Shown here one piece after another: positions 1 through 19,127 of a stretch of 19,127 bases of DNA. The notes beneath the pieces were generated by a model, which worked only from the letters and a program-made list of their open reading frames with translations, was not told where the DNA came from and made no database searches. Every line of letters begins with the position of its first letter. Position 1 is the first letter of the stretch. The position numbers were made by a program, and so were the translations under genes. The DNA comes from a virus. Location of the stretch: the UHGV virus genome UHGV-0215688; one strand, given 5' to 3'.

Positions 1-116
1 CATAACCTGAATCTGAGGCAGCACCTGGCACGGCTGGGACGGAAGTCGCTGTCGTTCTCAAAATCGGTGGAGCTGCATGACAAAGTCATCGGGCATTATC
101 TGAACATAAAACACTA

Positions 117-566
117 TCAATAAGTTGGAGTCATTACCCAGAATTCTATGCTAACGCTCCATGAAGGATCATTTATCAAATGGAATGATAGAGGTGTCGA
201 GCCATGTATAAATGCCAAATTCGCAATCCAAGTCCTTATGCTAAAAACATAATCACCTGGCACATACCCCCCATTATGGCTATTTACACAGTAAATTATT
301 ACCATTATCGCTGATGATATGAAGGTAAGAGGCCACAGCCTCGCCAGTCTATTCAAGAAATATGACGGGATAGACGCCCCATTTCTTACAGAATGGGTAA
401 GCACAAATCCCGAAATGATGAAAAAATATGCAACAGCCAAGTGAGGGCCACTAAATGGCCCGTCATTTTTCCAACCAGTAACAGCATTGATGGCGTGATT
501 TAAAAGCACTACGCAAGCAAAAAGGCCGCGCAAACCATCAACAGCATAGAAGCGTTTAATTTCCAT
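117..566 (-). pseudogene. Acyltransferase family 3 (O-antigen/LPS acyltransferase-like), N-terminal fragment, truncated at 149 aa
   Basis: Translation carries the N-terminal hallmarks of acyltransferase-3 membrane enzymes: RFYAVDGLRGLFACVVLLNH, FFIISGFVL, NRLARLWPL, WSVSIEF. Full-length members are about 330+ aa; here the frame stops at 117 and all three minus frames hit stops shortly after. ATG at 564-566 has no Shine-Dalgarno. Gene is visibly AT-rich against the GC-rich phage backbone. Confidence 0.5.
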
Positions 567-590
567 AACAATTTATTTAAAAAAAGAAAA

Positions 591-596
591 ATTATA
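591..596 (-). promoter_or_regulatory. Candidate -10 hexamer (TATAAT on minus strand) upstream of the acyltransferase fragment
   Basis: Plus-strand attata at 591-596 is a perfect TATAAT on the minus strand, 24 nt upstream of the ATG at 566. No convincing -35 was found. Confidence 0.25.
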
Positions 597-685
597 CTAG
601 AAATATATCATCAACATCTATGCCATTGATGATTAAGTGATGATTGTCACATTTTTATGTTTCTGGCTAGATTGCTGTCAGCGCT

Positions 686-853
686 TTACGCGTTTGACTC
701 AGGTTCGGTGAACGCTCCCTCTTCATAAATCCATCCGATTCCACATGGAATTCCGTCTATTTTAACAACCTTAAAATCATCAAAAATATGACCTTCACCA
801 TCCCATATAACAACATTAACAACTATTCCATCTGTAATTAATGCATATCTCAT
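686..853 (-). CDS. Small hypothetical protein (55 aa) translationally coupled to the tail fibre gene
   Basis: ORF track gives 686..874. The ATG at 851-853 overlaps the fibre TGA stop (ATGA) and has GGAGG 7 nt upstream, so the likely product starts [22 protein letters not shown]. Visibly AT-rich compared with the fibre gene. Confidence 0.5.
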
Positions 854-1776
854 GCAAATTCCTCCACAAGACAAATACCATCAGCACCTTCACCACCATA
901 AAAACGCGTGGAGAAGACCTGCGTGTCATATGCGCCAGCGCCGCCGCCGCCAGGGACTAATGCTTTCGCAATTATCGGTGAAGATACAGTACACTGCCCC
1001 GCTCTTCGGCTGCCACCCCAAAAGCTTGAACCGCCGTACCCATTAAGGAATCTGGTATTACTTTGGCCATCTCCGCCATCTCCGCCGGCTAGATTTACAT
1101 CACCACCAGACCCGGCAACTCCAACGCCGCCTGATGCATATACAGTGGAAGCAGTGGACGGGTTTCCGCCTGTGGCAACCATCCCGCTAAATGTTGAGTT
1201 ACCGCCTTTTGTTGCCTCAGTGCCGCCGGCACCGATAACCACGGCAAAGTTTGTGATATCAGCCACGTTGAACCATTTGATACCTGTAGCGCCTGCAGCC
1301 CCCCCCGCACCGGAAAAGTTATCGGTTGGGGCACCACTATTAAAAGCGCCACCTCCGCCACCACCTCCTCCCGTTAGAGTTACTTTGATGCGCTTCGTCA
1401 GCGGGTTTAGCGTTACTGTTTTTGATGAGGTGATCCACTGCTCGGCAATCTTCCTACCTACGTATCCGTTGGTATCTCCCAAATCAAGGTTTGCGAGAGC
1501 CGTTTTCACCGTGCCATCCGATTTGATATCGCCAAACGGATTCTTGCGGCTTAACAGCAGAGCACGAAGCGCGGTAAGCAACTGGTCGTGCCGCGCCTTC
1601 TCCAGACTGGCACCAGATGCCTCAACAACGCTACAAAGTTCTTCCTGCAACATGTCAAAGTAGTCATCATCCAGATCGGTGGCAGGCGTGCCAGTCTGGG
1701 GGTTACCACGGGTAAAACCGTTCTTACCCGCGCCGAACTTATCCTTCTGCGCGGTTTTCGTGTCTATACGATGCAT
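850..1776 (-). CDS. Tail fibre protein with conserved N-terminal domain and glycine-rich C-terminal region
   Basis: 308 aa, last gene of the tail operon directly after the gp48-like gene. N-terminus [58 protein letters not shown] resembles side-tail-fibre N-termini of Mu/e14-type prophages, as recalled. C-terminal half is Gly-rich with an octa-glycine run. GGAG RBS 6 nt upstream of the ATG. Confidence 0.75.
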
Positions 1777-1779
1777 GGA

Positions 1780-2364
1780 TTACTCCGGATATTTAAAAAT
1801 TACGTAGGTATGCGACGGGCAGAGTTTGTTAAGCACACACTCGACAACGGTGTCGCCCCAGATACGCAGTGCGGAATCACAGGGATCGCCACATGTCATC
1901 CAGGTGGTGTTGGTGGTGGTTGGCATGTTGACATGCCAGTAATACCGCCATTCCGGCGCATTCACCGCGTCAGTACAGGCCGATGAGCAGGTGAACGTGC
2001 TTTTGTCGTATCGCGTGATGGTGGCATCTGGTCTGCCCAGGGCAGCAAGCTGTGCAAGATAAAAATCCTCGTTGATGCCGCCCGCCAGGTTAACCTTCGC
2101 ATCCAGCCGTTGCTGACGCTGGCGAAGGGTCTGCGTTCCCGCCGGAATACATTCATCCGGCAGACCGCACAGACGCTCCCAGCGGTTTATCAGTTCAGTG
2201 GTGGTGCGCGGATCCAGCTCCCGCATCAGGGCATCCGCACGCTGATGAACACGGGTTAATGACGGTGCCGCACCGGCAATCGCCGGATCGCTGGCTGACC
2301 ACGCCGGACCGGGCGGCAACAGTGCCGATAACAGGCGGATGTAATCATCGTTTGTCACGTCCAT
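1780..2364 (-). CDS. Mu gp48-like tail/baseplate protein (YmfQ/DUF2313-like)
   Basis: 194 aa, immediately between the baseplate J-like gene and the fibre gene, which is the gp48 position in Mu-like tail modules. Start overlaps the J stop by about 10 nt. Confidence 0.7.
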
Positions 2365-3413
2365 GAAATCGTCCCCAGTACCGCCAGTTCGTTTTTCGCA
2401 ATGGAGATATTGTCCACCGGTGCAAGCAACTGATGGCTGTATTCCCCGTTCGCACCGGAAATCGCCTCACTGATACGCGACACCTTCAGTTCTCCCTGCG
2501 GATAACCATCACGCAGCAGGAACGAACGCAACTCCGCGGTGATGGCAGCCCGTATTTCCGGTGTATCCGGCGTCACGCGGATATGAAAATCCACCGTATG
2601 TGCCACCGGCCTGAACACATACAAGTCAGAACCTGCCACCGGGGCCAGTGGCCCGATATGTTGTATTGCCGCCGTTTCCGTTGATTCTTCCGGAATGGGA
2701 TTAATCAGGTCACTGCTGGCAATCATCACACCGACAGTTCCCGTTCCCATCCAGTGACGGTATGTCCATGCGCGGGTAATGCCGGGCACTTCTTTAGCCC
2801 AGACGACATAGTCCCCGTCAGCCCCGCCCTGCGGCGTCCAGTAATACCGCTCAATGACGCGGGCGCGCCACGTTTCCAGATCTTCAGTATCGAATCCGCC
2901 AGTCAGGGTATCTGCAACACCGGAAGACGGCAGACCATTCACCGGCGTGACTAGGATTAATGCCGTACCGTCGTCAGCGTTACCGACCGCGCCTGCATTT
3001 GAGCAAGTGATCGGCACACGCAGGACACCACCGGAGCTGGTTGCATCGGCAGTTGCCGTGTACTGAACCAGGTCATCGCGCTGAATCACGCTCCCGGCAG
3101 TCACCTTCAGGCCATCGCTGACACCTTCCCAGCGCATATACCCGCTGGCAGCCGTGGCCCCCTTGCGCGGACACCGTTTCATCGCAGCATGTCGCGCCAG
3201 CCAGGACTCATCGCACAGGTCAGGCAGCATATTCATTGCCAGATAATCGATGTACCCGTAGACCGTATGCAGCGCCGCCGCATACACCTTTGCCCGCACG
3301 TCTTCATCCATGCGCCGGAGCGTGTTGCTGACGTCCAGCCTGGCGAATAAATCGTTACGGAGCATACTGATATTTTCTGCCAGCGTCGGGCGCTGAAATT
3401 CACTGTCCGCCAT
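2355..3413 (-). CDS. Baseplate J-like protein (Mu gp47-like)
   Basis: 352 aa; size and position between the gp46-like and gp48-like genes match the baseplate wedge J family. Start ATG at 3411-3413 overlaps the upstream stop. Confidence 0.8.
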
Positions 3414-3828
3414 GCGTTATCGCACTCCACAGATCATCAAAAGAAATCATTACCGGTCCGTCACGACGCCAGAGAGTGATACTGTTACCCAGTTCATTAA
3501 TCCCGGTACGGCGGATATCCAGATCAATACGGGACACCACGCCGTCATCAATCATCCATTGCAGGCATTCGCGGATATATCCCCTTACCGTCTGCACCAG
3601 CTGATTGGTCAGTTTGCTGCGCTGAAGCAGCCACAGTCGGGAGCCGTAACGGTCATTCTGTACCGCAGGCCAGGTATCCCCCCACCATCCCATCGGGACG
3701 TCGGCGTTGTCATCAGGCTCCGCCCGCCGCCAGGTAAACAGGGAAATCACCACGGCGCGGGTCAGCGGATCCAGCGGTGCGCTGGCGCAGGTGCGTTTAC
3801 CGTTCACCGTCAGCCACAGTTCCATCAT
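3400..3828 (-). CDS. Mu gp46-like baseplate protein
   Basis: 142 aa between the gp45-like and J-like genes. Tandem ATG ATG at 3828-3823 overlaps the gp45 TGA; the second ATG has better GGAGG spacing. Confidence 0.7.
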   Translation of the reverse strand: MMELWLTVNGKRTCASAPLDPLTRAVVISLFTWRRAEPDDNADVPMGWWGDTWPAVQNDRYGSRLWLLQRSKLTNQLVQTVRGYIRECLQWMIDDGVVSRIDLDIRRTGINELGNSITLWRRDGPVMISFDDLWSAITHGGQ

Positions 3829-4373
3829 GCCTCCATCGCTTTATCAGGTTTGTCGGTGTTACTGCCCTGACCGTTCTCTCTGTGACGATGCCCGTTATAG
3901 GCAAGCCGCATCGCTGACATGGTGGTGCCGCCGGAGTCGCACAGGTCTTTCACCTGTCCGGTCACTTCCAGGTCCATTTCAAAACGTGCTTTAGGTGAAT
4001 TGCGAAACGTGATCGTTTTACCTGCACCGTCCACCACGATCCCCTCCCGGGTCAGCGTCACGGACTGCCCCTGATCGTCATAGACAGCCACCTCACCCGT
4101 CTGCAGCCCTTTCAGGCGGTAGCGCCGGTCCGACACCGTAACAACCACCGCATGAGAACGGTCGCCATCCGGAAACAACACCACCGCTTCCGCACCGCTG
4201 TTTGCCCTTGCGGTAAAACCGTAGGGTTCAAGATGTTCAACCCCGGCTTTGGGTTCACCGGCAATCAGGGACACATCCACGGTCTGACATTTCGTGGCGG
4301 CACTGATGCTTTTCACCACGGCCCGCCCAATCAGGCCGAGGAGTTGTCGCTGCATGGCTTCAATCGTCCTCAT
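3825..4373 (-). CDS. Baseplate assembly protein V-like spike (Mu gp45-like)
   Basis: 182 aa; N-terminal region (GLIGRAVVKSI...TVDVSLIAGEPKAGVEHLEPYGFT) is typical of gpV/gp45 baseplate spike proteins. The ATG shares one nucleotide with the stop of the P-like gene (TGATG). Confidence 0.75.
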   Translation of the reverse strand: MRTIEAMQRQLLGLIGRAVVKSISAATKCQTVDVSLIAGEPKAGVEHLEPYGFTARANSGAEAVVLFPDGDRSHAVVVTVSDRRYRLKGLQTGEVAVYDDQGQSVTLTREGIVVDGAGKTITFRNSPKARFEMDLEVTGQVKDLCDSGGTTMSAMRLAYNGHRHRENGQGSNTDKPDKAMEA

Positions 4374-5452
4374 CAGAACGGGTCCTCCTGTACTCTGGCT
4401 TTTTTCTTTTTCCGCGCGCCGGGGGCTTCGGGTTCAGGCAGATAAGCATCAGGTGGGCCGACACGGATTTCCGTCAGGGTGCCGTTCTGGTCCTGAGTAA
4501 ACGTGACTTCCGAAACAAGCAGTTCGGTATTGTCGAAACCACAGACCGGATCAAAGACAATCACCCGCTGGTTGGGCTGCCACAGCGTACCGTTACACTG
4601 TCGCCAGCCCTGCACCACATAGGTGGTTTCATCCGTCCGCGCCGCCCGTTGTCTGGCTTCAAAGTCCGCACGGGCAATACAGCCTGCCCCCGTAGCCTGC
4701 CCTGTCTGCCTGATATACATCGGACGGTAACGGGCAATAAATGCGTCCTCTGTGCGGGCCCGCAGCGCGGTGGTGGTGGCCTCACCGAAATCATCGTCGT
4801 TTCCGGCACGCTGCCCCGCCACCTGGTAAACAGAAAACCGCTCCCGGATACTCTTCTCCGTATCGCAGGAAAGGATGTTTTCCCCGAGTACCAGCGCAGT
4901 ATGTGCCCGAGTTGAGCCAATACCGCCAATCACCAGCCTGCCGTGCGGGTCGTCGTAAGCCAGTGCCTGCTGCTGACCGAGTATTTTGTTGATTACCTCA
5001 ATCACCGTTTCACCGTGATCAGGCTGAACATCAGGAATAACACCCGACGGCGCACCGCTGTTCACCACCTCAATGCCGAAAGGCGCAGCAAGCGCCTGCG
5101 CAATCTGCACCAGCGAGCGTCCGTTAAACTGTGTCGGTTCGGCTGCACAGTCAATCAGGTCAGCCGTCAGACTACGTCCGACAATACCGGTGCTGACCGA
5201 ACGGGAATCGTAACGAACGGGCGTCGCCTCCACCCAGCCGGTGATCACCAGCTCATCACCAATCAGCACTTCCACTTTTGAACCGTTTTTAATGCGCGGC
5301 TGAAGCGTGGTGATACCCTCATCTCCCGGCCACTGGCGGGTGATCTCCACACTGAAATCCCGCGCCAGCCGTTCAATACCGGCACCGATGCGCACCGATG
5401 TCCAGCCATTCCACTCCCGGCCATTTACCCGTAGCGTGACATTGTCGTTCAT
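4373..5452 (-). CDS. Mu gpP-like tail protein (late control D-like baseplate hub)
   Basis: 359 aa following the N gene with an ATGA overlap; N-terminus MNDNVTLRVNGREWNGWTSVRIGAGIERLARDF matches Mu P/gpD-like tail proteins as recalled. Confidence 0.75.
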   Translation of the reverse strand: MNDNVTLRVNGREWNGWTSVRIGAGIERLARDFSVEITRQWPGDEGITTLQPRIKNGSKVEVLIGDELVITGWVEATPVRYDSRSVSTGIVGRSLTADLIDCAAEPTQFNGRSLVQIAQALAAPFGIEVVNSGAPSGVIPDVQPDHGETVIEVINKILGQQQALAYDDPHGRLVIGGIGSTRAHTALVLGENILSCDTEKSIRERFSVYQVAGQRAGNDDDFGEATTTALRARTEDAFIARYRPMYIRQTGQATGAGCIARADFEARQRAARTDETTYVVQGWRQCNGTLWQPNQRVIVFDPVCGFDNTELLVSEVTFTQDQNGTLTEIRVGPPDAYLPEPEAPGARKKKKARVQEDPF

Positions 5453-6777
5453 TGCACTGGCACCTTCAGAGGGATCACCGGCACAAAGCCGGGATGCGTA
5501 ATGGCATTACGCCGGATAATGTCCGCGTCACGCGCCGCGTTATCAAACCAGGTCGCCGCCAGCACCAGCGCGGGTAAAACCTCATCCGGTGTGCGCTGAA
5601 TGATCCGTGCAGACTGTTCAAGGCGCGTGTTGATATCCGCATTCAGATCTGCTTTCACCCGGCGCAGCGCCAGAAACAGCGCATCACTGGTTGTACGGGA
5701 CAACTCCTTATCAATTGCCGTATTCAGTGTGTCGCGAATGTCAGTCAGTTCTTCCCACGTCGGCAGGTCAACCGTGTTTTTCACCGCCGGTGCATTGTTC
5801 AGTGCCGGATGCGTGACGGAAGGCCAGCCAGTGCTCTGCGCGGGTGTTGTTGCCTGCCCCACTGCGGCATTCTGCATCACCGCGGAAGTTGTTGGCGCAG
5901 GCAATCGGGTGACGGCATACGCCGCTTCGCTGATTGCGGTCGTACGAAGGGTGCTGGCAACCACGTTACGCTGCTGCGTCGCCGTGGCGGTGGTTTTACT
6001 GTCCGTTTTCCAGACGCCGCGCGGTTGCAGATCGCTGCCGAGGCTGACACCGGAAAGCGTTTTGATCATGGTGACCAGGTCGCTGGCGTTACCATAAAGG
6101 CGTTTCCCGGTACGCCACATTTTCTGCACCTGCTCAACGAAATTTTTGCCTGACGATGGCGGCGGCAGAAGTACCGAGATATCCCCCTGCAACAGCCTGG
6201 CGGCATCCGATACGGCAGAATCCACCACTTTCATCGCATCAGAAACATACCCCAGCATTATGCTGGCATTACCGATAACGTCGTTCTGCACGAAATCCGC
6301 AACACCATCGATACTGAAACCGCTGAAGCTGTCACTGATGCAGTCATCCAGTGCAGAACAGGATGACATCAGCGTCTGCGCCGTCGCCGCACCTGATGTG
6401 GGGTAAGAGAGTTCTCCTGCTTCGACAAACTTCAGGTCAAAGCGGACAATACGCCCTTCACTTTTCGATGTGCTGACCCGAACTTCCCCGTCAACACAGA
6501 CTTTCAGCTCACCATATGTCGGGTGGACAAGCGTGCCTGGACCGGGTTTATTCAGCGCGTCAATCAGGCGATCGCGCTGGTCAAAGCAGTCATCTCCCAC
6601 CACATAAGCTGTGATGGACGGGCGGAAAGTGATTTTCCCCAGGTCTTCGGTATAGGGTTTGTCGCGGTTTGGGTATTCATGCGTTTCAACCCGACGTCCT
6701 ACCGGGGCCCCTTCATCTTCTACCTTGAACGGAACGCCGCGAAACGACGCTTCAACCAGTCTGTCTTTCCACGCCAT
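5449..6777 (-). CDS. DNA circularization protein N-like tail protein (Mu gpN-like)
   Basis: N-terminal MAWKDRLVEASFRGVPFKVEDEG...HEYPNRDKPYTEDLGK resembles the Mu N N-terminal domain. Listed with the in-frame ATG at 6775-6777; the ORF track starts at an in-frame TTG at 6789. Sits directly downstream of the tape measure and moron in Mu-like order. Confidence 0.8.
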   Translation of the reverse strand: MAWKDRLVEASFRGVPFKVEDEGAPVGRRVETHEYPNRDKPYTEDLGKITFRPSITAYVVGDDCFDQRDRLIDALNKPGPGTLVHPTYGELKVCVDGEVRVSTSKSEGRIVRFDLKFVEAGELSYPTSGAATAQTLMSSCSALDDCISDSFSGFSIDGVADFVQNDVIGNASIMLGYVSDAMKVVDSAVSDAARLLQGDISVLLPPPSSGKNFVEQVQKMWRTGKRLYGNASDLVTMIKTLSGVSLGSDLQPRGVWKTDSKTTATATQQRNVVASTLRTTAISEAAYAVTRLPAPTTSAVMQNAAVGQATTPAQSTGWPSVTHPALNNAPAVKNTVDLPTWEELTDIRDTLNTAIDKELSRTTSDALFLALRRVKADLNADINTRLEQSARIIQRTPDEVLPALVLAATWFDNAARDADIIRRNAITHPGFVPVIPLKVPVQ

Positions 6778-6805
6778 TGTCTGCACCAATATGATTTGTT
6801 ATAAG
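6777..6805 (+). promoter_or_regulatory. Sigma70-like promoter for the moron gene (-35 TTGTCT, 17-nt spacer, extended -10 TGTTATAAG)
   Basis: TTGTCT at 6777-6782, 17-nt spacer, TG at 6797-6798, then TATAAG at 6800-6805; about 65 nt upstream of the moron ATG. Overlaps the start of the divergent N gene. Confidence 0.4.
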
Positions 6806-6869
6806 CTACTCTGTTTCAGACGCTTCTTTCGAAGCGACAGAAAACATTTACCTTTAAGGAGAGGTATAA

Positions 6870-7307
6870 ATGGAAATGTTTTTGCCGTTAATACTGGGTT
6901 TGTTGCTAGCCGTTTTCATAGGACGGTGGGCTTATAAAAAAGAAAAGACCAAGCCCAGAAAAATAATGGCTGCTCTTCTCGGTGCTGTTTTTGGATTCTT
7001 CGCACCACTGATAATCGCAGCGTTTGTTATGACTCCCCCAGAAAAAGAAAAAACTAAAGAGGAGCTTGTTATGGCAAAGCTCACACGCTCTTTGGATGGT
7101 TGTCCACTTGATATGAAAGATCGCGTGAAAGAATCAATGAATGATCCCGATAGTTTTGAATGTATCGAAACTAACGTTATACGTCGTAAAGATGATTACG
7201 TCATGATCATGCAGTTCCGTGGCAAAAACCAATTAGGGGGAATGGTTAAAAATGTCGCCAAGGCGGAATATGACTCAGAGGGAAATTTCGCAAGGTTCAT
7301 CAATTAA
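6870..7307 (+). CDS. Moron: 145-aa two-helix membrane protein with a roughly 90-aa C-terminal soluble domain (candidate superinfection exclusion protein)
   Basis: Only convincing plus-strand gene in the window. Strong RBS AAGGAGAGG 5 nt before the ATG. Two hydrophobic helices (about residues 3-19 and 33-54) separated by a Lys-rich loop YKKEKTKPRK, followed by a domain with two Cys. Strongly AT-rich against neighbours; hairpin immediately after the stop. Confidence 0.75.
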   Translation: MEMFLPLILGLLLAVFIGRWAYKKEKTKPRKIMAALLGAVFGFFAPLIIAAFVMTPPEKEKTKEELVMAKLTRSLDGCPLDMKDRVKESMNDPDSFECIETNVIRRKDDYVMIMQFRGKNQLGGMVKNVAKAEYDSEGNFARFIN

Positions 7308-7311
7308 AAAC

Positions 7312-7334
7312 AATGGGAGGTTTACCCTCCCATT
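7312..7334. terminator. Perfect 9-bp stem / 5-nt loop hairpin between the convergent moron and tape-measure genes
   Basis: aatgggagg (7312-7320), loop tttac, cctcccatt (7326-7334). The tape-measure stop codon (7322-7324) lies in the loop. A T-run follows only on the minus-strand side (GTTTTTAA). Confidence 0.5.
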
Positions 7335-9097
7335 CCAGTCCTCCCTATCCTTGTGTAACCTACATCATGGTTAACATCTATACCTGTGGAACGGCTATCA
7401 GTAACACTCATTCCTTGTGGGGCACCTTTGAACTCAACGGTGATGGATCCTTTCGGTTGAGTCGCCGTTCCCTGTTTGATCTGATAAGGGTTATATCCTG
7501 AACTAGCCACTCCTGTACCATACGCGCCGTAACCACCGGCTCCCCACTGCGCGGCGTTTGCGGCAGCGACCGTATCACTGGCACCATCTGTAAACCACTC
7601 GATAATAGGCTTGAGCTTGTCCCACATATCCTGAAACCACTGCACAACTGGGCCCCAGTTGTTAATGATCATTCCCATAGGAGTCCAGGCGAAAACAGTT
7701 TTGAATAGCTCCCAGCCAGCCTCAAAGTATGGTTTTATGCTTCCCCACATTTCTTTAAAGAATGGCCCAACGACATCCCAATTTGCTATCAGCACCCCGG
7801 CAGCCAACGCAATCCCCCTGATAATTAAACCAATAGGTGAAGCACTAGCGACAAAGGACATTATTTTTAATGCCATACTGGCACCAGCAACGGCAACTCG
7901 AAGTGCGACAAATCCGGCTGCTGCACCCAGCAATGCTCTAACCATGGCAGGATTACGTGAAACAAAGTCAGTTGCTTTTTGAATCAGGGGCATCAACCCC
8001 GCGGCGCTGGCATTAATTTGTGGCAGCAATGCATTCCCAAGCGCCACACCAGCGTGAGTAGCCTGATTTCGTAGAAGCTGTAACTGGTTTGCAGTCGTTG
8101 CTGCACGGGCCTCATACTCTTTTTGCATTGAGCCGGTATACTGCGATGCATCACCAACCATATTGAAGTTTTTCTTCAACAGATCGAGGTTGGTTAACAG
8201 AGGGGCAATTGCGCCAATGGACTCTTTACCAAAAAGAACATTCAATGCCTTCGGTTGTCTGGCCTTATCAAGTTTTGAGATGCTTTCAAGGACCTTCAAC
8301 ATCGTTCCCTGGGCATCCTTTTGCATATCTGAAGCAAGTTTTTTGGAATTAAACCCGAGGAACTGGAACGCCTCCTGCTGCTGTTTAGAACCTCCCGTAA
8401 TTGCCAGCATAAAGTTTTTAATGCCAGTTGCGGCAATTTCCTGTTCAACGCCCACACCTGCAAGTGTTGCGCCCAACGCCGCAATCTGACCCGACGCAAT
8501 ACCAGCAACCTCCCCAAGCGGACCTATGCGGGTAACAATGTCAGAAATCTGCTGGGCGCTGGCAGCCCCGTTGTTTGAAAGATAGTTAATCTTATCTGCA
8601 AGCGAAACCACCTCACCCTGAGTCATTTTGAAAGAGGTTCGCCACTTAGCCATCATCTCGCCGGACTGATCCGCTGATTGATCAAAGGCGACGCCCATTT
8701 TCAGTGCGTCTTCTGCAAATTGCTTCAGGTCTTCCCTTGCAATACCAGCCTGGCCACCTGCGGCTACGAGTTTCGCAATATCATTCGCGGCCATAGGCAG
8801 ACGATCCGACATTTTTAAGATGTCTTCACTCATCTCGGAAAACTGCTGTGGCGTATCGAAATCGACAACTTTACGAACATCAGCCATCTGCGATTCAAAA
8901 TCTATTGCCGCTTTGGCCCCAGCAATAAACGGCGCTGCAAATGCCCCGCCGCCGATTAAATCCCCCATAGAAAAATCAGCTAGACCGCTGGATTTGATCC
9001 CTTTTTGAAACCCTTTGATTTTCTTCTGCATGGAGGACAGCGCAGGAGAAAGCTTATCAACTCCTGTAATCAGGGCTTTAAGTTCAAACTCAGCCAT
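7322..9097 (-). CDS. Tail tape measure protein
   Basis: 591 aa, Ala/Gly-rich with a helical N-terminal part and a Trp-rich C-terminal part (WDVVGPFFKEMWGSIKPYFEAGWELFKTVFAW...). Located directly after the frameshifted chaperone, the canonical tape-measure position. ATG at 9095-9097. Confidence 0.9.
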   Translation of the reverse strand: MAEFELKALITGVDKLSPALSSMQKKIKGFQKGIKSSGLADFSMGDLIGGGAFAAPFIAGAKAAIDFESQMADVRKVVDFDTPQQFSEMSEDILKMSDRLPMAANDIAKLVAAGGQAGIAREDLKQFAEDALKMGVAFDQSADQSGEMMAKWRTSFKMTQGEVVSLADKINYLSNNGAASAQQISDIVTRIGPLGEVAGIASGQIAALGATLAGVGVEQEIAATGIKNFMLAITGGSKQQQEAFQFLGFNSKKLASDMQKDAQGTMLKVLESISKLDKARQPKALNVLFGKESIGAIAPLLTNLDLLKKNFNMVGDASQYTGSMQKEYEARAATTANQLQLLRNQATHAGVALGNALLPQINASAAGLMPLIQKATDFVSRNPAMVRALLGAAAGFVALRVAVAGASMALKIMSFVASASPIGLIIRGIALAAGVLIANWDVVGPFFKEMWGSIKPYFEAGWELFKTVFAWTPMGMIINNWGPVVQWFQDMWDKLKPIIEWFTDGASDTVAAANAAQWGAGGYGAYGTGVASSGYNPYQIKQGTATQPKGSITVEFKGAPQGMSVTDSRSTGIDVNHDVGYTRIGRTGMGG

Positions 9098-9099
9098 TT

Positions 9100-9255
9100 T
9101 TATTGTTCCTGGTTGATGCGGTTGGCCTGCTCAGCAAGTAAACCCAGAACTGAAAACGGTTCGTTGAGCATTTCCAGGGGATTGATGTGCCAGTATTTGG
9201 CGCAATCAAAATAATGATTCAGGAGTTGTCCTGCGCTGAGTTCCCGAGGAAAAAA
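9100..9255 (-). other. Programmed -1 frameshift site and extension of the tail assembly chaperone (G/GT-type fusion)
   Basis: Slippery heptamer T TTT TTC on the minus strand (plus 9249-9255) inside the chaperone ORF. The -1 frame stays open for 49 codons (PRELSAGQLLNHYFDCAKYW...RINQEQ) to TAA at 9100-9102, 2 nt before the tape-measure ATG. No 0-frame gene fills 9100-9218. Confidence 0.6.
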
Positions 9256-9506
9256 CCGACAATATCCCAACTGATAGTGTTCAGATCTGAGGGTTGCATT
9301 TCATCAACAGAACTTGGTGGGATGCTCGCCAAACGAGAAATGTATTTCGCAATTACCCCTGCATCCATTTTCACGCCTGCATCGCCGCTGGCCGTGTAAG
9401 GGAAACCAAGTTCACGAACATCTTTCCCCGTAGGCTCCCGCAGCTCAAGAACGTGGATATCTTCCCCATGGGCTCGAACAGGTTTGCTTAGTTTAATTTC
9501 CTTCAT
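9219..9506 (-). CDS. Tail assembly chaperone (0-frame product)
   Basis: 95 aa between the tube and tape-measure genes; carries the slippery site near its 3' end. ATG shares one nucleotide with the tube stop (TAATG). Confidence 0.7.
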   Translation of the reverse strand: MKEIKLSKPVRAHGEDIHVLELREPTGKDVRELGFPYTASGDAGVKMDAGVIAKYISRLASIPPSSVDEMQPSDLNTISWDIVGFFLGNSAQDNS

Positions 9507-9862
9507 TACTGGTAATCCCCTTCTTCACCGTGGAACTCAAGGTCGACCGTGCCTTCTTCGGCATTATGGTTCGCTTCGCCGTGCAGCCAGGCAGACGACA
9601 GTACATAGACCTGACCGTTCGCCAGCTCGGCAGTGATGGTCATCTCATCAGACGAGGTGATTTTGCTCACCGGAAAATTCTTCGGCACCTTGAAAGTCCC
9701 TTTGACATAAGGCGCACGGTGAGTTTCCTTGCGGTCCACTGAACCGTCCAGGCCGATGATGTCATCATTGACTGTCCTGTTCATGGGCACCTCAATGCCG
9801 CCGGTCAGCGATAGCTGCTGACCGTCAATTTTGAAATAACAGGTTCCACCGATACGGGCCAT
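9506..9862 (-). CDS. Tail tube protein (Mu gpM-like)
   Basis: 118 aa immediately after the sheath gene (TAATG overlap) with GAGGAG RBS; size and position are typical of myovirus tube proteins. Confidence 0.75.
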   Translation of the reverse strand: MARIGGTCYFKIDGQQLSLTGGIEVPMNRTVNDDIIGLDGSVDRKETHRAPYVKGTFKVPKNFPVSKITSSDEMTITAELANGQVYVLSSAWLHGEANHNAEEGTVDLEFHGEEGDYQ

Positions 9863-11358
9863 TATGCAGACTCCTCTGAATACTGAAGACGGAACTGGTT
9901 AACCACGGCAAAGACACGCAACTGGTTAACATAGTCAGGCGGGAACAGCGTGTTCAGGCGGTTCGGATCACTGGCATCACGCTCCACAACCAGGTACTGC
10001 TTAAACAGTTCGTAGTTTTCCACGATCCCCGCACGCTCAAGCTGACGGTAGGTTGCCAGCAGTTCCCCTTTGATCACCGCCGGGGTGACAATCGCCTGAC
10101 CTGGACCAAAGCGGGTACCGTCGCTGGCAAGCTTGTGACGCCCGTACTTACTGGTAATGACGGATTTCAGTTTGCGCAGCACATACGCGCTGGTATGCAG
10201 CGTCTCGCTGTCGAGGTAGCTGTTATCCGCAACACCGTAAGCGTTTTTCCTGTACGTGGTGACATCACGCTGAATGCGCAGCACCCCGCTTTCGACATAC
10301 GCCGTTGCCACGCCATGAGACAGCAGGGTCTGTTGCTCGGTCATCGTGAACCGTTTCCCCTTCGGCGCAGGCAGCATACCCACCAGCTCACCGGTCTGCG
10401 TGGGACGTGCCGGATCGTTGCGAATAAACACCGCTGCGCGGGCGGTACGGCTTGCCGCCAGTTCGTCGGCAGGCGTCTGGGTCTCTTTTTCGTACCCCGC
10501 CAGGGTAATGTGCTGCTGGTTAAACTGGTCACCTGCGGTCACCAGTTCTGACAGCGTGCCGATCTTTGCCGTATACACATGACCATACAGCTGACGCGCA
10601 TAGCTCCAGCGACCGCTGGTATCGTTCATCTCGGTCACCAGCGTGTTAACGGAGGCCGTGTCGTTGAACGGCAGGCCGATATAATCAAACGGCTCATCCG
10701 CCATTGCAGCGACCGCGCCGGTGAGAACCGGAGCGCCCGCTCCGGAGGTACCCGTCGCCACGGCAATCTGTACGCCCGCAGGCAGCACTTCGCCCCCACC
10801 GAAGCCGTAGTAATTGAGGCTGACAGGAATTTCATTCCCGCAAAGCCCCTTATGACGCGCGGTCAGTGTGACCACGCCTGCCGAAGATGAGGCCGTAAAC
10901 GGCAGGGCCGGAACGGCATTGATGGCATCCTGAATACTGCTGGCAATCGTCGTGACGTTATCGCCGTTGGTCACCGGTGCCTGCACGCGGGTACGTCCCA
11001 CATAAACATTCACCGTGCCGGTTTCGGTTGCTGCTCCGGTCACCGTCAGCGTAACCGTTGCCGCCGCGCCTGTGGCTTCCGGAACGGCAATCACATACAG
11101 CTCGCCAAACGGGTCGGTCTGGCGATAAGCCTCGACCATACGCGCCAGCTGACTTCCCGCACCACAAATCTGGCGTGCATAGTCTGCCGACGGCATCAGC
11201 ACCAGACTGTTGGCAACAATCTCTGCACCGTTATTGGCGTGACCAATCAGCAACGACGCTCCGCTGTCCTGTGCAGTATTAGCCGCCTGGTTATCCATTT
11301 CCGCATAAAACAGCGGAACCAGCGTATTCGACGGAATGGTGTTAAAGCTTATCGTCAT
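9862..11358 (-). CDS. Contractile tail sheath protein (Mu gpL-like)
   Basis: 498 aa, first large tail gene after the neck genes and followed by the tube gene; AAGGTGA RBS upstream of ATG at 11356-11358. Confidence 0.85.
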   Translation of the reverse strand: MTISFNTIPSNTLVPLFYAEMDNQAANTAQDSGASLLIGHANNGAEIVANSLVLMPSADYARQICGAGSQLARMVEAYRQTDPFGELYVIAVPEATGAAATVTLTVTGAATETGTVNVYVGRTRVQAPVTNGDNVTTIASSIQDAINAVPALPFTASSSAGVVTLTARHKGLCGNEIPVSLNYYGFGGGEVLPAGVQIAVATGTSGAGAPVLTGAVAAMADEPFDYIGLPFNDTASVNTLVTEMNDTSGRWSYARQLYGHVYTAKIGTLSELVTAGDQFNQQHITLAGYEKETQTPADELAASRTARAAVFIRNDPARPTQTGELVGMLPAPKGKRFTMTEQQTLLSHGVATAYVESGVLRIQRDVTTYRKNAYGVADNSYLDSETLHTSAYVLRKLKSVITSKYGRHKLASDGTRFGPGQAIVTPAVIKGELLATYRQLERAGIVENYELFKQYLVVERDASDPNRLNTLFPPDYVNQLRVFAVVNQFRLQYSEESA

Positions 11359-11524
11359 CGGTATTCACCTTTTCATTCACGCGCCGGATATCACCCGCTG
11401 CTTCACGGCGCAGCCAGTAGTTGTTCTCGTCAACATTTCGCCCTTCGGTGGGCAAAAGGTCACCGCGGGCAGGGTCAGGCACTGACCGCCCTTTAACAGG
11501 TTTGACAAACATGAGGATCCTCAT
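11342..11524 (-). CDS. Small Mu gp38-like protein (DUF2635-like)
   Basis: 60 aa directly before the sheath gene, as in Mu-like tail modules. Start ATG overlaps the upstream stop (ATGA) inside a 14-bp palindrome. Confidence 0.55.
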   Translation of the reverse strand: MRILMFVKPVKGRSVPDPARGDLLPTEGRNVDENNYWLRREAAGDIRRVNEKVNTDDDKL

Positions 11525-12081
11525 GAAGGAAGGGTTATTTCGGTGTGATGTTCGATATCGCCGTCAGGCCCGTTACCGGGATCGAGATAATCAACATCAA
11601 TCGCCAGCGTTTGCAGTTCATCCAGACTGTTCAGCTCATCCTGCTGGCGGGTATCGTCTTCGGTCAGCTCGCTGATGACCGAAAAATCGAACTGATAAAT
11701 CAGCTCATGACGATTCAGATCCAGCAGCGTGCCGCCGTCATAGGTAATCGGGTTACCGCACGCCTCCGGGTTCCAGCCCAGCAGGGCCTTAAAGAGCATC
11801 TGCCGGACATCGTCCACCACATCATACGAAGCAAACTGACCGCGCTCATCACGCCCGTTACTCAGTATGACAACCACGGAGAAGCCCTCTTTCAGCTCCT
11901 GCCAGTAGTCGGTCTGGCTTTTGTTTTCTCCCGGAGAGTCATCACCCGGTACCACATATGCCGCCGGGAGCTTCAGCTTTCCGACCTCCGGCAGATTTTT
12001 GAACTGGGCCGCGCCTGCAACCCGGTTTTCAAAATACGGACAGCGGGCACGCAGCGCAGCAATAACAGGCGTCAGTTTCAT
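11521..12081 (-). CDS. Mu gp37-like tail completion/terminator-type protein
   Basis: 186 aa between the gp10-like and gp38-like genes with ATGA overlaps at both ends; acidic C-terminal third (ELTEDDTRQQDELNSLDELQ...). Confidence 0.55.
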   Translation of the reverse strand: MKLTPVIAALRARCPYFENRVAGAAQFKNLPEVGKLKLPAAYVVPGDDSPGENKSQTDYWQELKEGFSVVVILSNGRDERGQFASYDVVDDVRQMLFKALLGWNPEACGNPITYDGGTLLDLNRHELIYQFDFSVISELTEDDTRQQDELNSLDELQTLAIDVDYLDPGNGPDGDIEHHTEITLPS

Positions 12082-12584
12082 CTGTGTCGTCGCTCCGGCT
12101 TCAGTGATTTACGCAATTCCCGCGCCAGAAAATAGCGTGTCCAGCTGCGGTTCTTTTCAAGAGTTTCCACCATGAAGTTATTACGTGGAGCCAGTCGCCA
12201 GCCGCTGCCACCGGATGCACCACGATGATGACTACGACGACGTTTTGCTCCTCCCCGGACACCAAAAAATAGAAACGCCGGATAGAAGTCACCAGAGATC
12301 ATCCGGTTCCCCTTCCCGTTGCGCTGGTTAGGGGCTATACGTGCCATAAAACCGGGGCGATGTTTACTGGCTCTGGGTACCATATAACCAATCGAACGTG
12401 CCAGGCGTCCGGTCTGATAACCGGGGTTTTCACCCGGTGCCGACCGCGCACGGCGCATCACCAGCCGACGGGCATCACGCATATGACGCTGCCCAATCGT
12501 GACAAACGCCCGCCGGACACGGGCGCGGTTAAAGCGCATCTCCGTGGGCTGCTGAACATCAACGTGCAAAAAGGGAGTCGCCAT
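12078..12584 (-). CDS. HK97 gp10-family neck/tail-completion protein
   Basis: 168 aa, very basic, with the PGENPGYQTGRLARSIGY motif resembling the gp10-family signature (P..P...TG.LRRSI); GGAGG RBS 5 nt upstream of the ATG. Confidence 0.7.
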   Translation of the reverse strand: MATPFLHVDVQQPTEMRFNRARVRRAFVTIGQRHMRDARRLVMRRARSAPGENPGYQTGRLARSIGYMVPRASKHRPGFMARIAPNQRNGKGNRMISGDFYPAFLFFGVRGGAKRRRSHHRGASGGSGWRLAPRNNFMVETLEKNRSWTRYFLARELRKSLKPERRHR

Positions 12585-12969
12585 TGCTGCCTCCGTGACT
12601 CTGCGTAAATTCGCCCAGCTCTGTACACTCCAGCAACAGAAAGCGCCGCGCCCCGTTCAGATCACGCTGACGTTTCACCCGGTACACACTGTCATCACAG
12701 ACCACCTCATAATCAGCAGTGATCCCCCGGCGGTAACGAATGGTGATGTAATGGGTGATGGCGTCCCCGGTCTGCGCGGTTTCCTGCCAGGTGGTGGCAC
12801 TGGTCTGGATAACCTTCGCCCATGTCCGGAACGCAACCGGGTATTGAGGCTCCACGCCAAAGTTATCAGCGGGCATATCCACCCGCTGGCGGATCAGGAC
12901 GCGTTTATTCAGTTCACCGGGGTCCGGCAGAATGTAGGTTGCGCTGGTCTGCGCCTGACTAATTTTCAT
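12559..12969 (-). CDS. Head closure / head-tail joining protein
   Basis: 136 aa following the connector gene (ATGA overlap); pattern fits the head-tail joining family (VIQTSATTWQE...YITIRYRRGIT...YRVKRQRDLNGARRFLLLEC). Confidence 0.65.
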   Translation of the reverse strand: MKISQAQTSATYILPDPGELNKRVLIRQRVDMPADNFGVEPQYPVAFRTWAKVIQTSATTWQETAQTGDAITHYITIRYRRGITADYEVVCDDSVYRVKRQRDLNGARRFLLLECTELGEFTQSHGGSNGDSLFAR

Positions 12970-13289
12970 TGCTGAAAGTACCTGTACGGGCCGACAAGCC
13001 AGCCAAAACTCTGCGGCATGTCGAGTTTCTCCACTTCCGTAACCGACGAGCGGTTTTCGTAAAAATGGCTGATAAGCATCAGCATCCCCAGACGAATATC
13101 ATCCGGCAGGTGCAGCCCGTCCGGATCGCTGTCCGGAATGGTGTCATCCGGTGCATAGAGCTTCCGGTTCAGATACGTTTCCGTCCGCTTTTGTGCCGCA
13201 CAGGCCAGCAGTTGCAGATGGCGGTCATCAGCATCGAAATCCTCATCCAGCCGGAGTTGGGCTTTAATCTCTTCCATTGTCAGAAGCAT
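12966..13289 (-). CDS. gp6-like head-tail connector (DNA-packaging/adaptor) protein
   Basis: 107 aa; N-terminus MEEIKAQLRLDEDFDADD...YLNRKL is typical of gp6-like connector proteins; placed after the major capsid block. Confidence 0.65.
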   Translation of the reverse strand: MLLTMEEIKAQLRLDEDFDADDRHLQLLACAAQKRTETYLNRKLYAPDDTIPDSDPDGLHLPDDIRLGMLMLISHFYENRSSVTEVEKLDMPQSFGWLVGPYRYFQQ

Positions 13290-13291
13290 AC

Positions 13292-13492
13292 TCAGCCCTC
13301 TTTACTGGTCGTGGCTTTTTTCTCTTTTGTCGCTTTACTGCTTTTTGCACTGGTTCCGCGCTCTGCTAACCCGGCCTGAAGTGCAATCTCCTGCACCCGG
13401 ACAGGAAGCTCCCCGTCGTCATACTCACCGGCCCGAATGACCTCAACACGCATACCGTCCGGTGACCATTTCAGATCTTGTTTCAGGATCAT
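13292..13492 (-). CDS. Small hypothetical head-module protein
   Basis: 66 aa with a Lys/Ser/Thr-rich tail, between major capsid and connector genes; no family recognised. Confidence 0.4.
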   Translation of the reverse strand: MILKQDLKWSPDGMRVEVIRAGEYDDGELPVRVQEIALQAGLAERGTSAKSSKATKEKKATTSKEG

Positions 13493-13511
13493 GATTCTTC
13501 ACCCGTCAGAA

Positions 13512-13537
13512 CAGGGGGAGCGGTTCCGCGCCCCCTG
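13512..13537. terminator. GC-rich imperfect hairpin just downstream of the major capsid gene (possible attenuator/RNA-stabilising stem)
   Basis: caggggg (13512-13518) pairs with ccccctg (13531-13537), with further inner pairing; lies in the 50-nt gap after the capsid stop at 13543. No clean U-tract follows on the minus strand. Confidence 0.3.
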
Positions 13538-13542
13538 AATGA

Positions 13543-14748
13543 TTACGCCGCTGCAATCTTCAGCAGTTTGATGGCCTGCGAATCGACCAGCATGCCGCCG
13601 GTGCGTTTGGTGGTATAAAAACCGACAAACGGTTTATTGGTGTACGGGTCACGCAGAATGCGGGTGCCGATACGGTCAACGATGGTGTAACCCCGTTTGA
13701 AGTTACCAAATGCAATGGCTTTCGCATCAGCGGCGATATCCGGCATCTGTTCGTTTTCAGCGATACCGTAACCCGACAGAGAGGACGGCTGCCCCAGATC
13801 CAGCCCCGGACGCCACAGATAGTTACCCTCGCTGTCTTTCAGCAGACGGATGGCAAACAGGCTATTGTTGTTCATCATGAACTTCGCGCCGGTGCGGTGT
13901 GCCTTACGCAGCGTGTAAATCAGTTTGATAATGGCGTCTGCGGTCACCGCCGTCGCGGCGCCGGATACAATATGCTGAAGTTTGCCGAACGCCCGGACCT
14001 TATCGGTTTCATCCGTGGATTCATACGCCAGGAACCCTTTCGGCTTCTTGGTACCATCGCCGGTGGTAAAGGCAATTTCTTCCTGTTCGGCAAATTCGGT
14101 TGCCAGCTCGCTGTTGATCCATGCTTCCACGTTGAAAAAGGCATCATCCAGCATTTTCTGGGTGGCCTGCGGGTTACCGTAGATTTCCCCCATGAAAGGT
14201 TCAATCAGGCCCAGTTTTGAGGTGGCAGTCTGGGAGCGCGCGTCAGTCTCGCCAACCCATCCAGAAGCCGTGCCGCCCAGATTCACCAGTTTTTTGTAGT
14301 CGGAGCCACCAACGGTGATCACCGTGGCTTCCTGGCGCATCACCACTTCATCTTTCAGCAGGGTGAGAATGTTGCGATCCAGTGCTTCCGGCACGGCATA
14401 GCCGCCGTCTTCATCGGTGCCCACCTGTAATGCCTTGCGCTCCAGATCGCGCAGACCATCTTCACGGCCTTTACGCAGGAAGCCCACAAACGCTTCTTTA
14501 TGCTCGGTGGCCAGTTTATTTTGCGCACCACCTGCCGGACGTTTCAGCTCAAGCAGCTCTTTTTCAAGATCGCTTTTGAGGTTTTCCAGCTCGCTGAGTT
14601 TCCCGTTCAGGGTTTCCACCTGCCCGGCAAGCTTGCCTTTTTCCTGCTCAATCGCATCCACGCGCTTGTCGTTCTTTGCTTTGAAGTCGTCAAACTTCTG
14701 CTGCAGCTCCTGCGCGACCTGTTCGACATCTTTAATATCTACCGCCAT
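13543..14748 (-). CDS. Major capsid protein, HK97 family, with N-terminal delta (scaffold-like) domain
   Basis: 401 aa; about 100-aa N-terminal predicted coiled coil (EQVAQELQQKFDDFKAKNDKRVDAIEQEKGKL...) followed by a capsid domain. Directly downstream of the prohead protease, with no separate scaffold gene. AGGAGA RBS. Confidence 0.9.
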   Translation of the reverse strand: MAVDIKDVEQVAQELQQKFDDFKAKNDKRVDAIEQEKGKLAGQVETLNGKLSELENLKSDLEKELLELKRPAGGAQNKLATEHKEAFVGFLRKGREDGLRDLERKALQVGTDEDGGYAVPEALDRNILTLLKDEVVMRQEATVITVGGSDYKKLVNLGGTASGWVGETDARSQTATSKLGLIEPFMGEIYGNPQATQKMLDDAFFNVEAWINSELATEFAEQEEIAFTTGDGTKKPKGFLAYESTDETDKVRAFGKLQHIVSGAATAVTADAIIKLIYTLRKAHRTGAKFMMNNNSLFAIRLLKDSEGNYLWRPGLDLGQPSSLSGYGIAENEQMPDIAADAKAIAFGNFKRGYTIVDRIGTRILRDPYTNKPFVGFYTTKRTGGMLVDSQAIKLLKIAAA

Positions 14749-14762
14749 CGTATTTCTCCTGA

Positions 14763-15413
14763 TTAGAAGTTCAGATTTTTCAGTGCATTCAGTGCAGAGC
14801 TCACATCCTCAGCGTCGCGCAGGGACAGTGCGCCATAGCCCCCGGCCATGAATGCTTTGGCCTGGGTACGGGAGAGTCCGACATCACGCAGGACTCTTTC
14901 GATTTTTTTCTGTTCAGGGATTTCCCCGCGGGCCAGTGCGTTCTTGACGTCGCTGATCCGCGCCTCGTCGTTAGACGGAAACGTCACCAGACTGACTTCC
15001 CAGAGGTCGATTTCTTTCAGCAAAAAGGCTTCTTTGCTCCTGTCGTATTCCCAGTCTTTCAGGACGTACCCAATAGAAAGGCCGGTTAACGAACCGGCCT
15101 TCATGTGTGCATGTGCGCGTTTTGCGAGGGGATCATCATCAATAAGCAACCGTCCCCTGACGTAAAGCCCGACATCGTCTTCCTTCATTTCAGTGTAAAC
15201 ACCGATGGGTTCATCCATGCGGTGCTGCCAGAGCAGCGCAGGTAACGCTTTTCTGTCACTCCACGCCCGCAGGGAAGCAGCAAATGCCCCGGACATCACC
15301 ACATCATCGTGGCTGTCCTTTACACCAAAGACGGAGCCATACCCTTCAAACTCACCGGAGTCACTGACAGATTTCAGACTCAGCGGTACATCAAGACGTT
15401 GTTTCGTCTGCAT
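14763..15413 (-). CDS. Prohead maturation protease (HK97 family)
   Basis: Motif EFEGYGSVFGVKDSHDDVVMSGAFAASL matches the HK97 prohead protease signature. ORF track starts at 15449, but the ATG at 15411-15413 has an AAGGA RBS; overlaps the portal 3' end. Confidence 0.85.
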   Translation of the reverse strand: MQTKQRLDVPLSLKSVSDSGEFEGYGSVFGVKDSHDDVVMSGAFAASLRAWSDRKALPALLWQHRMDEPIGVYTEMKEDDVGLYVRGRLLIDDDPLAKRAHAHMKAGSLTGLSIGYVLKDWEYDRSKEAFLLKEIDLWEVSLVTFPSNDEARISDVKNALARGEIPEQKKIERVLRDVGLSRTQAKAFMAGGYGALSLRDAEDVSSALNALKNLNF

Positions 15414-16632
15414 TGGCGTTATCCTTCTGCTTACCGGCTTTACTGCCATCGGAGGGTTTCGTGGTCATGTTCATCGGTGTGAGATAGACATTCCCACCGG
15501 GACGCGGATTCATATCTTCCAGGTCGCGGCAGTCATTGGGAGAGTAAATTCCCCAGTTAATCCCGGTGGCGTAGGCTTCAAAACGGGACTTCATATCCCC
15601 GCGCAGTAACGCCCCGGCGTTAAATTTGGCGTAATAAACGCCCTGCTTACTTTTTCGTACCAGTCCGGTGTTGATCCGCTGTTCGATGCGGGTCAGATAC
15701 GGCACCAGTGAATAGTTGATAAATCCGAGCCCCAGTTCTTCGATATTGTTGAAGGTGGCGCGATCGGTGTTCTGCACCATGTGCAATGGCACCCGGAACA
15801 GACGACAGATTTCTTCAAGCTGAAACTTGCGGGTTTCCAGGAACTGGCTGTCCTCTGCGTTCAACGCCATCGACTTCCAGTCCAGCCCCATCTCAAGGAT
15901 CATCGGGCGGTGAGCATTGCCAAGCCCGGTGTGACGCTCCTCAAAATCTTTCTTCAGGCGCTCATAAGCCTGATCCGACAGCGTCTGCTCTGTACGCAAC
16001 ACACCCGACGTCACCGCGCCATTGCTGAACAGTCTGGCCCCGTGCTCTTCGGTCGCTGCCGCCAGCGATATTGCCTCGCGGGCATAGGCGATGGGATTCA
16101 GTCCCACCAGACCGTCCAGCGTCAGCGTGCGCACATGCCAGATATCTTCCTGGCTCAGTACATCCGTGGAGCCGTCCGGAAATGTGACCTGGTAAACCGG
16201 TTCCCAGCTACTGTTAAGCTTCGGTACCACACAACCGGGATCGACGGGCAGCAGTTCAGCCACTTCGCCAAATGCTTTCACTTTGTAGGCGTAAAAATTT
16301 CCCCGCAGGCACAGACAGGTGACCACCAGCTCCCAGAACTCCTGCGGCGTCATATAGCTATTGGGATGCGTGGAGATCAGTTTATGCAGACGTTCGCCGG
16401 TGGCTCTCTGCTTCAGGCTGCCGTTCAGGTGATACAGATTGCAGGGCAACATCCCGACCGACTCTGCCAGCACTCTGACGCAGGAAAAAACCGCCGTCAG
16501 TCGCATGGCTCGCTGACTGCTGATCTGCTTTCCGGTATAGGTGTCGTAGGACAACCCGATGGCATCCGCCAGCTCTGCTGACGTGGTCACCGGTGCGTCA
16601 CTTTTTCGTTGAAATAATCCCGAAAAGAACAC
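15391..16632 (-). CDS. Portal protein (HK97 family)
   Basis: 413 aa between large terminase and protease. GTG start at 16630-16632 preceded by GGAGGT and overlapping the stop of the small membrane ORF by 1 nt. Confidence 0.9.
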   Translation of the reverse strand: MFFSGLFQRKSDAPVTTSAELADAIGLSYDTYTGKQISSQRAMRLTAVFSCVRVLAESVGMLPCNLYHLNGSLKQRATGERLHKLISTHPNSYMTPQEFWELVVTCLCLRGNFYAYKVKAFGEVAELLPVDPGCVVPKLNSSWEPVYQVTFPDGSTDVLSQEDIWHVRTLTLDGLVGLNPIAYAREAISLAAATEEHGARLFSNGAVTSGVLRTEQTLSDQAYERLKKDFEERHTGLGNAHRPMILEMGLDWKSMALNAEDSQFLETRKFQLEEICRLFRVPLHMVQNTDRATFNNIEELGLGFINYSLVPYLTRIEQRINTGLVRKSKQGVYYAKFNAGALLRGDMKSRFEAYATGINWGIYSPNDCRDLEDMNPRPGGNVYLTPMNMTTKPSDGSKAGKQKDNANADETTS

Positions 16633-16814
16633 TATTTACCTCCACCAACAGACAGCTGTGTACGGTCGAGATATCGCGCCACCAGCCACGACCAGAACAG
16701 GCACAACGCCCCGGCAACAACAAACCCCGCCGGGGGATAAATCAGCCAAGCACCATACGCCAGCAAAAGCGCCCCCAGCACGCCCACCAGAGGCGCGAGA
16801 ATCAGCATGATCAT
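16632..16814 (-). CDS. Small two-helix membrane protein (60 aa) within the packaging module
   Basis: [60 protein letters not shown]: two hydrophobic helices. GAGGT RBS; its TAG shares a nucleotide with the portal GTG start. GC-rich like the backbone. Confidence 0.55.
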
Positions 16815-16825
16815 AATTACCTCAG

Positions 16826-19050: not shown

Positions 19051-19127
19051 ATGCGGCACTCCTGGTTAAATTTCATTTTTCGCGGGTATAAAAAAACGAT
19101 GGGGCGGGCAGTCCGGAAGACGTCAGG

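Follow-up and report, generated by a model that had tools for sequence, protein, structure and literature searches.

The open reading frame (ORF) near the left end of the viral genome UHGV-0215688, whose 19,127 nucleotides are referred to here as the window, is the 5' part of an acyltransferase-3 (AT3) gene that is cut off by the right end of an IS1 element. The gene belongs to the PF01757 family and lies between the tail-fibre genes and the attachment site of a prophage related to Shigella phage SfV. Very probably, a 768-bp IS1 transposed into this prophage gene of 356 codons, at codon 143; in its intact form the gene is the terminal cargo of the prophage and likely encodes an O-acetyltransferase. 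Knock-outs by IS1 are common and this one is ordinary, the affected prophage AT3 gene being catalogued but uncharacterised. The finding matters little beyond annotation: ORF 117..566 should be labelled an IS1-disrupted AT3 acyltransferase pseudogene and not a short protein.

The acyltransferase gene ends at an IS1 terminus

ORF 117..566 starts with ATG and encodes 149 amino acids that end directly past WSVSIEFW, just as the first-pass annotation had described. It matches the Pfam profile PF01757 (Acyl_transf_3) with an E value of 6.8e-14 and 52.1 bits, the gathering cut-off of the family being 31 bits, and the alignment is restricted to residues 7-145, which correspond to positions 2-135 of the 326 in the profile. 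The original reading as a truncated acyltransferase-3 gene is thus borne out. The same annotation had proposed a comparison with related prophages that carry an intact gene. Such a prophage is present in E. coli CUWW06 (NZ_CP182139.1), where the uninterrupted gene of 1071 bp encodes a 356-residue 'acyltransferase family protein' (WP_115735173.1). Window positions 137-19127 are collinear with the CUWW06 prophage (98.9% identity, one gap), with identity beginning at 137-139 and amounting to 100% through position 3400. This places the break at 138/139, a few bases away from the initial estimate of about 117-135. The native part of the ORF comprises codons 1-142 and two bases of W143, that is the first 40% of the 356-residue protein, while window bases 117-138, which are IS1 sequence, supply the third base of W143, the residues VMTPTY and the stop codon. 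The minus-strand sequence across the junction is ...AGC ATA GAA TTC TG/G GTA ATG ACT CCA ACT TAT TGA. The coordinates of all features are collected in Table 1.

Table 1. Features at the left end of the window
Feature	Position	Strand	Remarks
Right end of 768-bp IS1	1..138	+	Last 138 bp, identical to annotated IS1 of E. coli 100416
Chimeric 149-codon ORF	117..566	-	143 native codons plus VMTPTY and stop from IS1 inverted repeat
5' fragment of AT3 acyltransferase gene	139..566	-	Nucleotides 1-428 of 1071; 100% identical to WP_115735173.1 gene; PF01757 match
AT-rich upstream region of acyltransferase gene	567..706	-	30.7% GC; direct reading
Conserved 55-aa ORF, overlaps tail-fibre stop	707..874	-	WP_162822453.1 in CUWW06; PHROG 14370, unknown function
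Tail-fibre protein, 308 aa, glycine-rich C-terminal domain	850..1776	-	PF21722 Gly_rich_2; PHROG tail-fibre families

The assignment of the left end to IS1 is based on two stretches that are identical to the 768-bp element: the terminal inverted repeat, which ends in ...GTCATTACC at window position 138, and the 3' end of insB, which occupies window positions 1-123 and translates as the InsB C-terminus. The reference copy in E. coli 100416 spans exactly 768 bp from GGTGATGCTGCC... to ...GTCATTACC (L002 6693-7460). When window positions 1-700 were used as a megablast query, 9387 E. coli records from 4963 of 5426 genomes were matched, annotated as IS1 family transposase; these matches span only the first 156-186 bases, and thousands of them reach at least 99% identity. 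Judged by alignment, IS1 is the only structural difference visible between the window and the CUWW06 prophage. The earlier description as a decayed or rearranged gene accordingly holds with respect to the truncation and fails with respect to gradual decay, as window positions 1-138 are the right end of IS1.

Short-read contigs typically end in high-copy repeats, and the window likewise has its first 138 bp in one; this could raise the suspicion that a contig end was misjoined to an IS1 k-mer and that the gene is really intact. We consider such an assembly artefact very improbable, because the junction coincides exactly with the canonical IS1 terminus and the same fusion was assembled independently in one ENA and three Logan contigs. 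These four short public contigs encode the identical 149-residue fusion product and all end a few dozen bases into IS1. An exact-pattern scan for the right junction in species-representative genomes and JGI metagenomes returned no matches.

Complete homologues are full-length acyltransferases

Short polypeptides of this kind do not occur as complete members of the family among the homologues collected. All 52 homologues found at E<=1e-5 carry PF01757, the full-length ones consisting of about 330-410 residues, and the short entries are contig-end partials or frameshift alleles. The first-pass annotation had named complete homologues of about 150 residues as the finding that would overturn it, and none is present in this set. 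Gene callers do report the 149-residue ORF, which is equipped with a start, an upstream region and a stop of its own, and this might speak for a naturally short, complete protein or for an N-terminal module that is functional. This reading is already contradicted and its likelihood is close to nil: the last six codons and the stop are IS1 sequence, the break is situated in the middle of a transmembrane helix, and within the 90% identity cluster the shorter members are again contig-end partials or frameshift alleles, complete ones having 356-358 residues.

The intact CUWW06 allele covers profile positions 2-323 of 326 of PF01757 with 80.1 bits. It is rare, being found in three of 5426 complete E. 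coli genomes. Among deposited phages no match to the intact gene was obtained by megablast, and a tblastn search of 50,697 phage records (E<=1e-5) yielded only relatives of 23-30% identity. NCBIfam provided no meaningful match, and a scan of species-representative genomes returned mostly distant AT3 genes with little context. The enzyme is a representative of an uncharacterised AT3 lineage and as such a new member of a well-known family; as the lineage is uncharacterised, the intact allele could be a modest target for substrate identification.

A run of seven T residues is present at nucleotides 668-674 of the intact CUWW06 gene (AGT GTT TTT TTG). Two alleles of 228 residues, P0061 and P0066, from E. 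coli and Kluyvera georgiana, terminate in ...KSVFWLCA and a stop, as expected if one T is lost. They may reflect slippage-prone inactivation or homopolymer sequencing errors.

Simple insertion or IS1-mediated rearrangement

In the scenario that we favour, IS1 (768 bp) would have transposed into codon 143, and the window begins inside that very copy; six codons and a stop of IS1 were thereby joined in frame to the 5' fragment. IS1 transposition most often results in simple insertion, which is probably, though by no means certainly, what happened here. It makes specific predictions for the DNA beyond the window: the sequence ...AACATAGATGCCCAGAATTCT/GGTGATGCTGCC, the latter being the IS1 left end, should be found 768 bp to the left of position 138, with ...GATGCCCAGAATTCT followed by GGTGATGCTGCC, i.e. 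a 9-bp duplication of CAGAATTCT. The duplicated CAGAATTCT should in turn lead into the rest of the gene (643 bp), then the att core TTTCACGATTACG and finally dacD. The predicted left junction, composed of target duplication and IS1 left end, gave no matches in an exact-pattern scan of metagenomes.

Alternatively, an IS1-mediated deletion or recombination between two IS1 copies may have removed or moved the 3' 643 bp of the gene, perhaps along with the att end and adjoining chromosomal DNA, so that IS1 would have no second gene half beside it. The window does not extend to the left junction of IS1 or to a 9-bp target duplication, if there is one, and a precedent exists in E. coli 100416, which carries an IS1 at the same end of the prophage. 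There, the 9-bp flanks of the element, CAACTATTC and CGAAGATTG, differ from each other, and the 55-aa ORF is connected through IS1 straight to a truncated integrase gene. Since the two flanks do not match, IS1 has mediated a deletion of about 36 kb of prophage, which spared the cargo gene. In this strain (NZ_CM128593.1, L002 5360-8289) an intact acyltransferase gene is followed by IS1 in the 55-aa ORF and then by the truncated integrase gene. For the window, we regard deletion or recombination as possible but rather unlikely, not only because of the general prevalence of simple insertion but also because of two partial coding sequences, P0059 (140 residues, ending in ...SWSVSI) and P0065 (216 residues, starting with EFWASML), which add up to exactly 356 residues. 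Both are contig-end partials with neighbouring NCBI accessions, are probably derived from one E. coli draft assembly and are split at residues 140/141, at most three codons from the window junction. As a lead only, this suggests that at least one strain has retained both gene halves on either side of a repeat; the pair may even represent the insertion allele of the window, complete with its two halves. In keeping with simple insertion, the 3' half of the acyltransferase gene would still be located on the far side of IS1.

The truncated product is predicted to be inactive

AT3 domains are composed of ten transmembrane helices (TMH) that form an acyl-CoA pore, and their hallmarks are an R-X10-H motif in TMH1 and an RXXR motif at TMH3 (PMC9833829). 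Both motifs are present in the window ORF. The fragment 139..566 retains R13-X10-H24, FFIISG (residues 48-53), R73-xx-R76 and W136/E141, and thereby keeps the acyl-CoA-binding arginines and the catalytic histidine. Conservation was read from alignments of 34 and 41 homologues. Among the residues retained, H24, F48, F49, S52, G53, R73, R76, W136 and E141 are invariant and R13 is near-invariant. The conserved residues lost are G200, G282, S285, Y289 (invariant), L290 and H292, and the near-invariant block FLGxISFPLYLLH is situated in the lost part.

An AlphaFold2 model of P0001, a homologue of 90% identity, shows ten long helices (pLDDT 92.1, pTM 0.91) and places residue 143 inside helix 4 (residues 135-150). 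Transferred to the window product, it would leave helices 1-3, the long loop between helices 3 and 4, and half of helix 4, and helices 5-10 of a complete ten-helix AT3 domain would be missing. Because the product stops inside helix 4 and lacks helices 5-10, the window copy is to be regarded as a gene fragment and not as a functional AT3 member. The model strongly indicates that the 149-residue product should be inactive, since the helices that complete the transmembrane pore are absent, and the loss of the FLGxISFPLYLLH block makes inactivity almost certain. The fragment may nevertheless have residual or dominant-negative activity. No bacterial AT3 structure has been solved, and no PDB entry was matched in a sequence search. 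The only neighbour in a fold search of the PDB was human HGSNAT with a TM score of about 0.5; it adds nothing specific and fits the published link within the TmAT superfamily (PMC12423673).

The gene occupies the cargo slot of an SfV-like prophage

From position 909 onward, the tail module of the window is 96-98% identical to those of Shigella phages SfI, SfV, SfII and SfIV. The CUWW06 prophage is complete, measures about 38 kb and resides between dacD and sbcB, being inserted in the 5' end of sbcB. The 13-bp att core TTTCACGATTACG is repeated at both prophage ends. At the end that lies away from int, the acyltransferase gene is the last coding sequence before att, its stop codon being 499 bp internal to the core. 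Part of what was originally the 5' end of sbcB, MMNDGKQQSTFLFHDY, has been left beside dacD, and sbcB itself has received a phage-supplied N-terminus, MTDADKQPTFLFHDY..., in place of its first approximately 15 codons (L007 580-628, 38893-38938). Repeats of TTTGGTAC near both prophage ends resemble integrase arm sites.

The tail-fibre gene is the structural gene nearest to the cargo, and the acyltransferase gene follows between the tail-fibre genes and att, the classical position of conversion genes. The original placement in the cargo slot of an SfV-type prophage agrees with this layout and with the 96% identity of the tail module. Other features of SfV-type phages, namely gtrA-gtrB-gtr(type) genes and integration in thrW next to proA, are not found: the intact CUWW06 prophage has no annotated gtr genes and uses the sbcB site. 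Moreover, the acyltransferase gene is co-directional with the tail genes and opposite in orientation to gtr operons.

The GC content of the acyltransferase fragment (139-566) is 41.6% compared with 54.7% for the rest of the prophage, and the upstream intergenic region is still poorer in GC (Table 1). Direct reading of positions 567-600 revealed no Shine-Dalgarno sequence before the ATG. By direct reading only, a perfect TATAAT was noticed at 596..591 on the minus strand, 24 nt before the ATG; a sigma-70 consensus promoter scan called no full -35/-10 pair upstream of the gene. Low GC and an absent ribosome-binding site had been put forward as signs of a foreign and possibly inactive gene. Both features are real, and they mark foreign cargo; they are not evidence of decay, because the intact CUWW06 allele has identical upstream sequence.

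In the prophages of E. coli and Enterobacter, the 55-aa ORF 707..874, for which no Pfam match was found, always separates the acyltransferase from the glycine-rich tail fibre; it may be a fibre chaperone. A further ORF of 145 residues (6870-7307, plus strand) is inserted between the DNA-circularisation and tape-measure genes on the strand opposite to all tail genes. It corresponds to a hypothetical protein in CUWW06 (WP_061350224.1), has no Pfam match and only weak PHROG matches of unknown function, and may be a second moron. Insertion sequences were seen in related loci as well: in Enterobacter roggenkampii CP116249.1 (L009 6631-7839) an IS256-family (Transposase_mut) gene separates the 55-aa ORF from the AT3 gene, and in SfII (L008 2781-3971) a transposase gene adjoins oacD in the same cargo slot. 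The AT-rich cargo slot appears to collect such elements.

Inferred function of the intact enzyme

Over its full length, the intact enzyme matches PHROG 3333, 'O-acetyltransferase', with an E value of 2e-35. A relative of 41% identity, P0027 (L096 7001-8065), is encoded by the last gene of a polysaccharide cluster beside the his operon (hisI); this cluster also specifies an ABC-transporter, a GT8/DUF4422 protein, UDP-galactopyranose mutase and several glycosyltransferases and in its layout resembles an enterobacterial O-antigen locus of the galactan type. A relative from Acetobacter adjoins a gene for a GT2 glycosyltransferase. By analogy with OafB of BTP1 and Oac of Sf6 (PMC9558356), our best guess is that the intact enzyme O-acetylates a surface polysaccharide, for example O-antigen, altering the serotype and blocking adsorption of related phages. 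Acetyl-CoA would enter the AT3 pore from the cytoplasm, the acetyl group would be passed to a periplasmic sugar, and O-acetylation would change serology and phage adsorption. The designation as a seroconversion gene in the first-pass annotation is a presumption. If O-antigen is acetylated by the intact enzyme, serology and phage sensitivity should not be the same in strains with the IS1 allele as in CUWW06-like strains.

Close relatives of the gene follow tail-fibre genes in prophages of Enterobacter (P22-like) and Yersinia (P2-like), and the same 55-aa gene precedes the acyltransferase gene in Enterobacter prophages. A stretch of about 2.1 kb, comprising the region for the C-terminal domain of the fibre, the 55-aa ORF and the AT3 gene, shares 89-91% DNA identity with Enterobacter and Kluyvera loci. 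One may speculate, with considerable doubt, that these three parts constitute a mobile module of about 2.1 kb common to the SfV-like E. coli prophage, the P22-like Enterobacter prophage and the Kluyvera locus, which would combine a receptor-binding tip with an enzyme masking the receptor of that tip and would be switched off repeatedly, by IS1, by IS256-family insertion or by slippage in the T7 run, when the modification is costly.

Comparison with known systems

The window conforms to IS1 insertional inactivation as it occurs in E. coli and Shigella genes: a canonical terminus of the 768-bp element abuts coding sequence, and read-through into the inverted repeat gives a short foreign tail and a stop. 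Nothing is distinctive in this respect, the right junction alone being contained in the window.

The cargo slot of SfV holds gtrA-gtrB-gtrV and that of SfII gtrA-gtrB-gtrII, a transposase gene and an AT3 gene annotated as 'acyltransferase', which has been named oacD in published work (PMC8973906, PMC9558356). OacD of Shigella phage SfII is responsible for 6-O-acetylation of O-antigen GlcNAc (PMC8973906, PMC9558356). Like OacD, the enzyme considered here is a stand-alone AT3 protein of about 350 residues, encoded as cargo between tail-fibre genes and att of a phage, and the tail module of the SfII carrier is about 96% identical to that of the window. The two genes are, however, oriented oppositely relative to the tail genes, SfII carries gtrABII whereas this prophage carries none, and the window copy is broken by IS1. 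An orthologous relationship with SfII OacD was rejected, as the best E value in BLASTP against SfII_25 was 0.2 and the proteins are related at the family level only.

Oac/OacA of Sf6 and OafA/OafB of Salmonella are phage-borne O-antigen O-acetyltransferases that act in lysogenic conversion and block adsorption of the carrier phage (PMC9833829, PMC9558356). Oac of Sf6 is not detectably close to the enzyme, since no Shigella or Salmonella phage was matched in the tblastn search of 50,697 phage records at E<=1e-5. While OafA and OafB carry an additional SGNH domain that is absent here, the enzyme shares with Oac/OacA and OafA/OafB the R-X10-H and RXXR motifs and the 10-TMH AT3 fold.
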